Shown here one piece after another: positions 46,394 to 48,767 of a stretch of DNA of 64,000 nucleotides. The stretch is from Magnetococcales bacterium (lineage in GTDB: Bacteria; Pseudomonadota; Magnetococcia; Magnetococcales; JADFZT01): the NCBI GenBank assembly GCA_015232395.1, contig JADFZT010000005.1:8298-72297 (forward strand), read 5' to 3'. Within the stretch, counting starts at the first letter, position 1; every line of letters begins with the position of its first letter. The position numbers and the translations under genes are program-made. A model generated the notes under the pieces. The model was not told the origin of the DNA. It ran no database searches and worked only from the letters and a program-made list of their open reading frames with translations.

Positions 46394-46798
46394 ATGCCGA
46401 TGACCAATATGACGGTGGATTTGCTGGCTGGGGAGAGCGTTAAAGTGGTTGGCCCCGGAACCATGGAATTTCATGCCCCTGAGCTGGCCAATGTCGCCAA
46501 GGGAGGCGGTGCTGCGGCTGGCAAGGGCAAAGCCGCACTGGCTGGTGGCGGCAAAATGGCCGTTGCGGCTGGCCAGGGCCAAGGGGCCACTGTTGGCGGG
46601 GGCAAGCTGATCGCGGCAGCGGGCAGTACCGGTACTGGAGCTGCTGGAAGTGCCGGGACCATCTGGACCGGCAAAGGCTTGAGCCTGGGGCTGGGGTTGG
46701 GGTTGGGTGCCTGGGGGCCGGTGATTGTCGCAGGGGCTGCCCTGGGGGGGTATGTCTACTGGCGCAAAAAACAAGCTGCCAAGGTCTGGCCATTCTGA
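46394..46798 (+). CDS. Mms6/MamD/MamG-family LG-repeat magnetosome membrane protein homolog
   Basis: 134 aa. The N-terminal half is Gly/Ala-rich, followed by 'AGTIWTGKGLSLGLGLGLGAWGPVIVAGAALGGYVYW' (LG-repeat plus one TM). The C-terminus 'RKKQAAKVWPF' is short and basic. Confidence 0.8.
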   Translation: MPMTNMTVDLLAGESVKVVGPGTMEFHAPELANVAKGGGAAAGKGKAALAGGGKMAVAAGQGQGATVGGGKLIAAAGSTGTGAAGSAGTIWTGKGLSLGLGLGLGAWGPVIVAGAALGGYVYWRKKQAAKVWPF

Positions 46799-46819
46799 TC
46801 TGGCTGCCACTCTCCTGAA

Positions 46820-46841
46820 ATCATCCCGGTAACGGGATGAT
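46820..46841 (+). other. Perfect 9-bp stem / GTAA tetraloop hairpin between the mms6-like and mmsF-like genes
   Basis: ATCATCCCG-GTAA-CGGGATGAT, 22 nt after the stop codon, with no T-tract following. Confidence 0.7.
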
Positions 46842-47049
46842 GGTCAGGGGGCACACCTGTTGTACTGAATACACCTAATATAAGACGACTGGTGTGGGTA
46901 GCTGAAACAGCGATGTCTGCATCAATCTGAACCCCTGGGATGGAATGGTCCCAAGGGAGGGCCTGAACTGTCTGAAGCACGGACCGGGCTGGGGTTTGCT
47001 GATCGGGATTGGCCGTTCCATGTCAGAACATTTCATGTGAGGAGTAGAA

Positions 47050-47385
47050 ATGGCAACATCATCTGGTAAGGTTTTTCTTAAGAGGAGCAAGGGCAATCGC
47101 AGCAAGGTGCTGGCCATTTTCAGCTACCTGGGCATGCTCTGCTTTGTGCCGCTTATCTTTAACCGGAATGATGAATATGTCCATTTCCATGCCCGCCAGG
47201 GATTGGTCCTTTGGATTTGGGGCGTGCTGGCCATCTTCAGCCTGCATATTCCCCTGCTCGGGGCCTTTATCTTCAGCTCCTCGGTCATCTTTGTCATGAT
47301 TCTTTCAGTGATCGGCATCAGCTCGGTGGTGCTCTCCCGAGCTTGGCGATTGCCTCTGGTGGCCTTTGTGGCCGACAGGATGTAA
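47050..47385 (+). CDS. MamF/MmsF-family magnetosome membrane protein homolog
   Basis: 111 aa, 3 TM. '[48 protein letters not shown]' and '[16 protein letters not shown]' closely parallel MamF/MmsF sequences as I recall them ('SYLGILCFVPLL..RDDEYVYFHAKQGLVLWMW', 'R.W+LPLI'). Confidence 0.85.
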   Translation: [111 protein letters not shown]

Positions 47386-47423
47386 TATCCCCGACGGGAT
47401 TATGGCGAAAGCCTTGGGCTTCA

Positions 47424-47470
47424 GGCGGACCCATTTTTTTCTTAAAGGGGCCGCCAATCTTTTTGTTTTC
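47424..47470 (+). terminator. Rho-independent terminator after the mmsF-like gene
   Basis: GGCGGACCC (47424-47432) pairs with GGGGCCGCC (47447-47455) and is followed by AATCTTTTTGTTTTC. Confidence 0.6.
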
Positions 47471-47729
47471 TGGCCCAGGATGGGCTGGAATTAAACGCAA
47501 AACCGGTTTATTGCCGAGACGTAACCCCTCTTGGAACAGCCGGTTTCGTGCGGGAAGACCTGATGCCGGGCCTTCTCTACCCGGGTTGGATCAGACGATG
47601 GATCCATCACTTCCGGACGAAACGGAATTCCACACATCAGGATTGAACTAAATCAAGCTTCCTTGACGGATGCATGTGTATTTTTGTATCCAAATGGGCG
47701 GTTCTACTCAGGGGATAGTGAGAGGGATA

Positions 47730-48767
47730 ATGGATACGTCTTTGGAAAACGCATCACAGCTGTTTCTGGGAATTGATCTGGGAACTTCCCGGACCACCAT
47801 CATGTCGAACCGGGGGGCCAAGGAACTGGTTCGCTCCGTCGTGGGCTATCCCCGGGATATCATCGGCGTCAAGCTTCTCAATCGCACCAGCGCCATCGGT
47901 GAAGAAGCTCTGGAAAAACGCTCCTATATGAATCTCTATCATCCTCTTGAGGACGGGGTTCTCAAGGAAGATGAAAAACATATCCAGGCAGCCCGGGAGC
48001 TGATTCAACACGCCATCAGTCTCGCTGGCCCCCGGCCCGGGGACCAGGTGTGTGGGATTCTCGGTGTACCAGCCCGGGCCTCCATCACCAGCCGCAACCA
48101 ACTGCTGCAGATTGCCGAGGAGTTGATGGATATCTCCCTGGTGGTCTCTGAGCCATTCATGGTGGCTTATGGATTGGGCAAGCTGAATAACGCGATCATC
48201 ATTGATATTGGTGCGGGCACTATCGATCTATGCGCCATGAAGGGTAACATTCCCGGTGCGGCTGATCAGGCCACTCTCCTCAAGGGAGGGGACCACATCG
48301 ACGAATTCCTGGCCAACGCCATCTCCGAGTCCTATCCGGATGTGCAGATTACCAAAGTGCTGGCCAGAAAGATCAAGGATCAGTACGGTTTTGTCGGTGA
48401 AGCCAAGGAAGAGGCCATCGTGACCCTGCGGGCTTCCGGTAAGCCGGCCCCCCACGATGTCACCCAGGAAGTGCGGGCCGCTTGCGAAACCATCGTCCCG
48501 GATATTCTGGACAGCCTGGAAAAACTGATCCAGACCTTTGACCCGGAAGATCAGGACGAGGCCGTGAGCAATATCATCCTGGCTGGAGGAGGCTCCAATA
48601 TTGTCGGTCTGGATGTCGCCCTGGCCTCACGCCTCAAGGATTACGGCAACGTCAACGTCTCCCGGGTAGCCGACTCCGACTATGCCGGTTGTGCCGGCGC
48701 CTTGAAACTGGCTACCGAACTGCCTCCAGAATATTGGAGCCAAGTAGGAGATGTGGTCGGCAGCTGA
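47730..48767 (+). CDS. mamK: Actin-like magnetosome filament protein MamK
   Basis: 'LFLGIDLGTSRTTIMSNRG', 'SVVGYPRDIIGVKLL', 'YPLEDGVL', 'GVPARAS', 'VVSEPFMVAYGL', 'IIDIGAGTIDLCA', 'ILAGGGSNIVGL', and C-terminal 'ELPPEYWSQVGDVVGS'. These run collinear with Magnetospirillum MamK as I recall it. The ATG at 47730 was preferred; the ORF is open from 47670. Confidence 0.9.
   Translation: MDTSLENASQLFLGIDLGTSRTTIMSNRGAKELVRSVVGYPRDIIGVKLLNRTSAIGEEALEKRSYMNLYHPLEDGVLKEDEKHIQAARELIQHAISLAGPRPGDQVCGILGVPARASITSRNQLLQIAEELMDISLVVSEPFMVAYGLGKLNNAIIIDIGAGTIDLCAMKGNIPGAADQATLLKGGDHIDEFLANAISESYPDVQITKVLARKIKDQYGFVGEAKEEAIVTLRASGKPAPHDVTQEVRAACETIVPDILDSLEKLIQTFDPEDQDEAVSNIILAGGGSNIVGLDVALASRLKDYGNVNVSRVADSDYAGCAGALKLATELPPEYWSQVGDVVGS

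Follow-up and report, generated by a model that had tools for sequence, protein, structure and literature searches.

The stretch of DNA analysed here, a 64-kb window (64,000 nucleotides) on contig JADFZT010000005.1 of an uncultured Magnetococcales bacterium, raises the question of why three genes of magnetosome type should stand together amid housekeeping genes. The contig is 113,810 bp long and belongs to a short-read metagenome bin, the metagenome-assembled genome (MAG) with the prefix HQL52. In an earlier note on this DNA, three co-oriented open reading frames (ORFs) had been singled out as magnetosome-type genes, and all three were recovered at the positions claimed for them, with the quoted peptides present and with similarities far beyond chance. 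They are intact, lie on the plus strand within 2.4 kb between hisG and a HicBA-like pair, and are referred to as ORF1 (46394-46798, 134 aa, MBF0368360), ORF2 (47050-47385, 111 aa, HQL52_02790, MBF0368361), and ORF3 (47730-48767, 345 aa, MBF0368362). All window ORFs of at least 60 aa were compared with 80 mamK loci, reaching up to 10 kb to either side of mamK and in many cases spanning full mamAB clusters. We favour, with fair rather than high confidence, the reading that the trio forms a small accessory ('satellite') set of magnetosome genes that works in trans with others located elsewhere in the HQL52 genome.

MamK filaments organise the magnetosome chains of Magnetospirillum. ORF3 scored 507.8 bits (E 1.1e-152) against the NCBIfam MamK model NF040964, above the cutoff of 400 bits. 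MreB, ParM, and BeeR were ruled out by scores of 63.7, 18.4, and 212.7 bits, respectively, all below cutoff (293 bits for MreB and 530 bits for BeeR); the earlier note had likewise argued for MamK rather than MreB or ParM. Residues 9-345 of ORF3 are collinear with residues 10-347 of the MamK structures from M. magneticum (PDB 5LJW, 5JYG, and 5LJV; E ~1e-116). In an alignment of 15 MamK sequences, ORF3 agrees at each invariant column; the phosphate-binding motifs are present, and so are D16, G18, T19, SEPFM, DxGxGT, GGG, and the C-terminal ELPxxYWxQxG. Judged by this homology, ORF3 is a bona fide MamK, encoded by a mamK paralog and predicted to be an intact actin-like ATPase. The public annotation lists it as 'rod shape-determining protein'.

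Among 895 homologues in the database, the nearest to ORF3 was P0002 (MBF0370022) at 81% identity, with all others at 72% or less; the top match in a scan of the genome collection with the MamK alignment was 71% identical. In a bootstrapped neighbour-joining tree, the window MamK and P0002 were paired in 99.7% of the replicates, inside the Magnetococcales radiation. The sister of this pair was split between a paralog clade associated with Zor/Mot-like genes (31% bootstrap) and the main-cluster MamK of locus L017 (29%).

ORF2 reached 15.5 bits with the local Pfam model DUF4870/MamF_MmsF, which has a cutoff of 25, and the precomputed annotation of the exact protein lists PF09685.16. Using tblastn, homologues of ORF2 were found in 47 of the 80 mamK loci, at identities of up to 71%. 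These homologues form two positional classes: mamF, directly after mamK, and copies of the mmsF type at other places in the cluster. Identity to ORF2 is 60-71% for the main-cluster mmsF proteins and 39-55% (median 50%) for the post-mamK MamF, and ORF2 branches within the mmsF-type clade of a neighbour-joining tree. The membership in the MamF/MmsF family that had been claimed for ORF2 is supported by this homology. Hydropathy analysis gave two segments, residues 18-39 and 50-99, the latter a 50-residue stretch that could hold two helices, as befits a small polytopic membrane protein. We assign ORF2 to the mmsF-type MamF-like proteins (Tic20/HOTT superfamily, PF09685); in the public annotation it is 'hypothetical'. 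In loci L081 and L171, where its context is best characterised, mmsF sits after an LG-repeat gene and before a mamX-like magnetochrome gene, in a unit divergent from mamI-mamE-(spacer)-mamK-mamF-mamL-mamM.

ORF1 consists of the N-terminal motif LLAGE.VKV.GPG.xEF, an Ala/Gly-rich linker, TIWTGKGLSLGLGLGLGAWGP, one moderately hydrophobic helix (maximal 19-residue hydropathy of 1.6), and the tail WRKKQAAKVWPF, which extends 11 residues past the helix and has four Lys/Arg and no Asp/Glu residues. The protein had been described as Mms6/MamD-like on the basis of an Mms6 motif, and the published Mms6 of strain AMB-1 does contain GGTIWTGKGLGLGLGLGLGAWGPIIL (PMC7041794). Compared with this reference sequence, ORF1 is 63% identical in the LG-repeat/transmembrane region only (residues 2-47). 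The likeness in the LG repeat and transmembrane helix stands, but orthology to Mms6 does not: Mms6 binds iron through an acidic C-terminus (E44, E50, R55, DEEVE; PMC7041794), which ORF1 does not have. With the NCBIfam models of MamD, Mms6, and MamG, ORF1 gave E values of 3e-14, 4e-11, and 3e-6, each at a bit score below the cutoff. A canonical Mms6 is excluded by the score (43.3 vs. 200 bits for NF040917) together with the tail, MamD by 53 vs. 100 bits with only model positions 198-303 matched (MamD is ~314 aa with a long N-terminal domain), and MamG by 27.3 vs. 100 bits.

The proper relatives of ORF1 are approximately 40 full-length homologues of 100-140 aa, nearly all from Magnetococcales, with identities of 42-56% and E values down to 6e-30. 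They have in common the basic tail W[RK]KKQxAKxWPF, the N-terminal LLAGE[ST]xKVxGPGxxEF, and the LG repeat. A precomputed match to Pfam PF28196 'Magnetosome_regulatory' is listed for ORF1 itself and for all homologues, and the motifs were checked by alignment and inspection. ORF1 is accordingly classed by its motifs as a member of a short, basic-tailed, coccus-specific PF28196 subfamily. The LG-repeat gene found just upstream of mmsF in main clusters is of another subtype, with an acidic Mms6-like tail (…EDGELEDALS in proteins of 260-290 aa and …DLEEAI in the 143-aa protein of L171). ORF1-family genes are often solitary in housekeeping neighbourhoods: they stand alone in other cocci between lppC and thiSG (L162:8844-9257) and beside a chemotaxis cluster (L165:10001-10360), and in L168-L170 one is found after a gene of the mmsF type, beside feoA and apart from the main cluster (L168:9643-10375). 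The public annotation of ORF1 is 'magnetic particle specific iron-binding protein', despite the lack of an acidic iron-binding tail.

How the three products might work together is suggested by studies of Magnetospirillum. Paulus et al. (2024) described MamF-like proteins as Tic20/HOTT relatives needed to place a subset of proteins in the magnetosome membrane; the clients MamJ, MamD, and Mms5 combine a soluble, Ala-rich N-domain with a C-terminal helix that is glycine-rich and moderately hydrophobic, and in strain MSR-1 it is MmsF/MmxF, not MamF, that serve MamJ (PMC11628618). ORF1 has an Ala/Gly-rich soluble N-domain and a glycine-rich helix, and its gene neighbours one of the mmsF type, so that the most economical reading is a client/insertase pair. 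ORF2 would then be a Tic20-like factor with whose help some proteins that have a glycine-rich C-terminal helix enter the membrane of the magnetosome, and ORF1 its likely co-encoded client, acting at that membrane and not as an iron-binding Mms6. The window MamK would polymerise into actin-like filaments organising magnetosome chains, probably together with the second, 81% identical MamK.

A stronger version of this scheme makes the trio a self-contained tether cassette, with ORF1 as a putative coccus analogue of MamJ that is inserted by ORF2 and links magnetosomes to the co-encoded MamK. ORF1 has the client architecture of the MamJ/MamD type (PMC11628618), cocci are without MamJ and MamY (PMC6783814), ORF2 is of the mmsF type that targets MamJ in MSR-1, and L001 and L002 likewise have a divergent ORF1-like small protein (F7) beside a mamK paralog. 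However, most ORF1-family genes are solitary and far from any mamK, and the consistent neighbour of mamK is another protein, carrying an 'LGD..GG' motif and itself showing a weak MamJ-like match. We therefore consider the tether improbable. If it were true, the linker between MamK and magnetosomes that is missing in the Magnetococcales would be supplied by the widespread solitary genes of the ORF1 family.

The isolation of the three genes speaks for the satellite cluster that we favour. Across the 64 kb, matches to the magnetosome genes in the 80 mamK loci were confined to ORF1-3, in agreement with the claim that no essential mamAB genes lie nearby, and the CxxCH magnetochrome motif was not found in any window ORF of at least 60 aa. 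For the 113,810-bp contig, homologue searches reported no further MamK, MamF-like, or PF28196 protein. Within the window the module stands alone, and the same probably applies to the whole contig. No tRNA, transposase-like ORF, or meaningful flanking repeat was found around it. Codon bias is host-like, with a G+C content at third codon positions (GC3) of 0.65-0.69 for the module genes and 0.69-0.74 for the flanks. Recent foreign acquisition was dropped as a leading idea on the grounds of composition and of the position of MamK; the placement of the MamK pair inside the Magnetococcales radiation favours rearrangement or duplication within the lineage over recent foreign transfer. We infer that the cluster arose in this way from magnetosome genes that the lineage already had. 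A metagenome scan with HisG for an empty hisG/gph site in relatives returned matches of at most 69% identity with no shared synteny.

Magnetosome genes exist elsewhere in MAG HQL52, as seen from HQL52_01125 (P0132, MBF0368036), a second mmsF-type protein 61% identical to ORF2 that is encoded on another contig of 161,384 bp. P0002, encoded on a contig of 47,690 bp, is probably the second MamK of the same MAG, based on accession proximity only (1,660 accessions after the window MamK), a distance that agrees with the ratio of locus tags to accessions and with contigs listed from long to short. An alternative of low, though not negligible, probability is that the trio holds the working mmsF and mamK and the only short LG-repeat gene of this genome, relocated from a fragmented cluster, so that the 'main' cluster would be without them. 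Compared with the products of the main-cluster mmsF and mamK of MAG HQL67, ORF2 and the window MamK each show 68% identity, a typical orthologue level; no MamK from a 161,384-bp contig was among the best 120 MamK matches; a second ORF1-family gene from HQL52 was not found in the homologue search; and the bootstrap support for the MamK placement is divided between main-cluster and paralog clades, as given above. These searches were incomplete, however: the word-indexed search for ORF2 homologues overlooked the mmsF-type gene of L168 (54% identical), so that a MamF-like null on a contig, for example the 47,690-bp contig of P0002, is unreliable as evidence of absence. The second mmsF-type gene, the probable second MamK, and the order of mamK followed by mamF in all of the approximately 45 main clusters examined also speak against a relocated sole copy.

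Several points nevertheless count against a satellite cluster. The main mamAB cluster of HQL52 was not seen, and a satellite and a relocated sole copy both fit. P0002 is placed in HQL52 by the nearness of its accession, and the order of accession blocks differs from that of the locus tags. ORF1 appears to be the sole short-type PF28196 gene detected in this MAG. In M. gryphiswaldense, the closest LG-repeat relatives of ORF1, MamG and Mms6, are independent of MamF-like proteins (PMC11628618). The 'LGD..GG'-motif protein usually adjacent to mamK is absent from the window. The gaps between the module genes (251 and 344 bp) and promoter and terminator scans at chance level give co-transcription no support. 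Finally, in the comparison of composition, where codon bias and GC3 were near those of the flanks, the tetranucleotide correlation of module and window was mildly atypical (5th percentile), partly from the low complexity of ORF1.

The last two points bear on two further explanations. The first is that the trio is a decaying or silent remnant of a duplication or rearrangement, no longer contributing to magnetosome formation; the long intergenic gaps, the lack of a recognisable promoter, and the isolation from the rest of the pathway speak for it. The presumed module promoter region, a divergent 498-bp intergenic stretch between hisG (minus strand) and ORF1 (45896-46393, GC 0.48), has a single weak sigma-70-like site at 46031-46058, with site counts at chance level, and an Rfam scan found no element. 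No convincing candidate emerged when the two gaps were screened for hidden small mamI/mamL-like ORFs. Against a remnant, none of the three ORFs is truncated or lacks a residue or motif invariant in its family, their codon bias is host-like, and each is preceded by a Shine-Dalgarno-like sequence, strong in the case of ORF2 (GAGGAG). The 47730 start of ORF3 has the Shine-Dalgarno-like AGAGGG, and an alternative upstream start at 47670 has none. A remnant is very unlikely in our judgement. Still less credit is given to an assembly or binning artefact, by which a magnetosome fragment from another population was joined to housekeeping DNA. The source being a short-read metagenome bin and the tetranucleotide value fit such an origin, but it would require two independent chimeric junctions in one 113.8 kb contig, the GC3 is near that of the flanks, there are no boundary repeats, and solitary ORF1-family genes in housekeeping contexts recur in independent assemblies.

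A satellite cluster of this kind has precedents beyond the one that the earlier note had named as the only one, the magnetotaxis islet (MIS) of AMB-1. In cocci, two or more copies of mamK have been published, and genes of the mms6, mamGFDC, and mamXY types may be 'scattered outside the MGCs', the magnetosome gene clusters (PMC9840458; PMC6783814); in our scan of the genome collection, many MAGs had two to three mamK genes on separate contigs. None of the 80 mamK loci has an mmsF-type gene directly upstream of mamK, and none has the contiguous trio. The trio is a new arrangement and a new instance of a known phenomenon, that of dispersed accessory magnetosome genes in cocci. The module does stand alone, and of the two descriptions offered by the earlier note, a second, satellite module or a dispersed organisation of magnetosome genes in this lineage, the latter fits best. 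The published multi-copy mamK reports resemble our case in that an extra mamK lies on a locus or contig apart from mamAB ('Ca. Etaproteobacteria'), but no trio of mmsF, short LG-repeat protein gene, and mamK was described in them (Koziaeva et al. 2019, PMC6783814; Liu et al. 2022, PMC9840458).

The MIS comprises seven genes over ~22 kb among transposases and phage genes, with a lower GC content, and was considered a product of horizontal transfer; its MamK-like protein and MamK share 54.5% identity (Rioux et al. 2010, PMC2818848). It shares with the present module mamK-like, mamF-like, and mamD-like (LG-repeat) genes outside the main island, presumably acting alongside it. The present module, however, packs its three genes into 2.4 kb; it is free of mobile elements, its codon bias resembles that of the host, and its MamK falls within the radiation of the host order. 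Neither the transposases nor the low-GC signature of the islet is present. The likeness to the mms6 operon of Magnetospirillum and its coccus equivalent is partial. In both arrangements, the gene of a small LG-repeat protein directly precedes a co-oriented mmsF-type gene, and ORF2 is nearest to the mmsF genes of coccus main clusters (60-71%), so that the mirroring claimed for the two gene pairs holds for gene position. It does not hold for identity: the canonical partner is acidic-tailed (Mms6-type), and ORF1 belongs to another subfamily, with a basic WPF tail and a different N-terminal motif. The canonical mms6-mmsF pair is also divergent from mamK and ~5-6 kb away with mamI and mamE between them, whereas here mamK follows directly.

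The closest MamK relatives apart from P0002 (67-72%) are encoded in a Zor/Mot-associated mamK paralog cluster (L001-L012), which in L001/L002 also has an ORF1-like small protein near mamK. Unlike the window, this cluster has ZorA/MotA-like, MotB/OmpA-like, tetratricopeptide repeat (TPR), and 'LGD..GG'-motif genes, and its MamK proteins form a clade of their own (95% bootstrap), joined with the window MamK in only 31% of the replicates. The gene order (e.g. L002:1972-15621) is ZorA/MotA-like (~1000-1250 aa), MotB/OmpA-like (~400 aa), TPR, a variable unknown protein, and mamK, followed by the ~100-aa motif protein and the ORF1-like small protein, with a true MamD nearby. The cluster occurs in many Magnetococcales MAGs, and no description of it was found in the literature searched.

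The motif itself, [VI]PVE.[LM]G.G..N.LGD..GG, spans ~25 aa and was found within ~0.6 kb of mamK at 18 sites in 17 loci, including L001:6984, L002:11312, L007:4080, L015:7636, L025:9533, L046:9531, and L171:5507. In main clusters it is part of the protein encoded between mamE and mamK, in paralog clusters part of the small protein downstream of mamK, and one example shows a weak match to the C-terminal region of MamJ. The motif may mark a MamK partner in cocci. In L171 of MAG HQL67, it is located near the C-terminus of a 327-aa Ser/Lys-rich low-complexity protein (L171:5106-6089, minus strand) between mamE and mamK, the position of 'maq1'/MamJ.

The flanks of the module agree with the earlier note. 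The minus strand carries oadB, oadA, oadG, and hisG upstream of the module; downstream of it, a VanY/M15 peptidase gene on the plus strand is followed by HicB-like, HicA-like, gph, hpt, metW, and metX genes on the minus strand and then by flhA, flhF, and a MinD/FlhG-like ATPase gene. The peptidase (48864-49736, plus strand) is a predicted TAT-signal VanY/M15 D,D-carboxypeptidase (Pfam VanY, 40.1 bits, and TAT_signal). It starts 96 bp past mamK, giving a four-gene plus-strand block between minus-strand hisG and hicB, and may be co-transcribed with mamK. With no homologue in any of the 80 mamK loci, it is probably outside the functional module. Two HicA/HicB-like toxin-antitoxin pairs are present in the window, at 23022-23484 and 49885-50565; a 73% identical copy of the first is located inside the main magnetosome locus L027 (4170-4491). 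In addition, a 354-aa ORF (12708-13772, minus strand) resembles a gene situated ~4-5 kb away from the second copy of mamK in L058/L059 (38-39% identity), as well as genes in L077 and L010 (30-31%).

The locus adds a compact and clean example that the accessory magnetosome genes of cocci are not confined to one island. Genome mining limited to 'MGC contigs' overlooks such genes, as does reliance on names when a MamK is mislabelled by NCBI, and separating the short basic-tailed LG-repeat subfamily from true Mms6 should end its annotation as iron binding. The finding also bears on models that tie the copy number and similarity of mamK to chain geometry, for which a correlation has been published (PMC9840458; PMC6783814); if both MamKs do share one genome, their 81% identity would fall within the range that Liu et al. 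tie to double chains (PMC9840458). The adjacency of an ORF1-subfamily gene, an mmsF-type gene, and a mamK paralog offers a testable client/insertase/filament hypothesis in a group of magnetotactic bacteria without MamJ.

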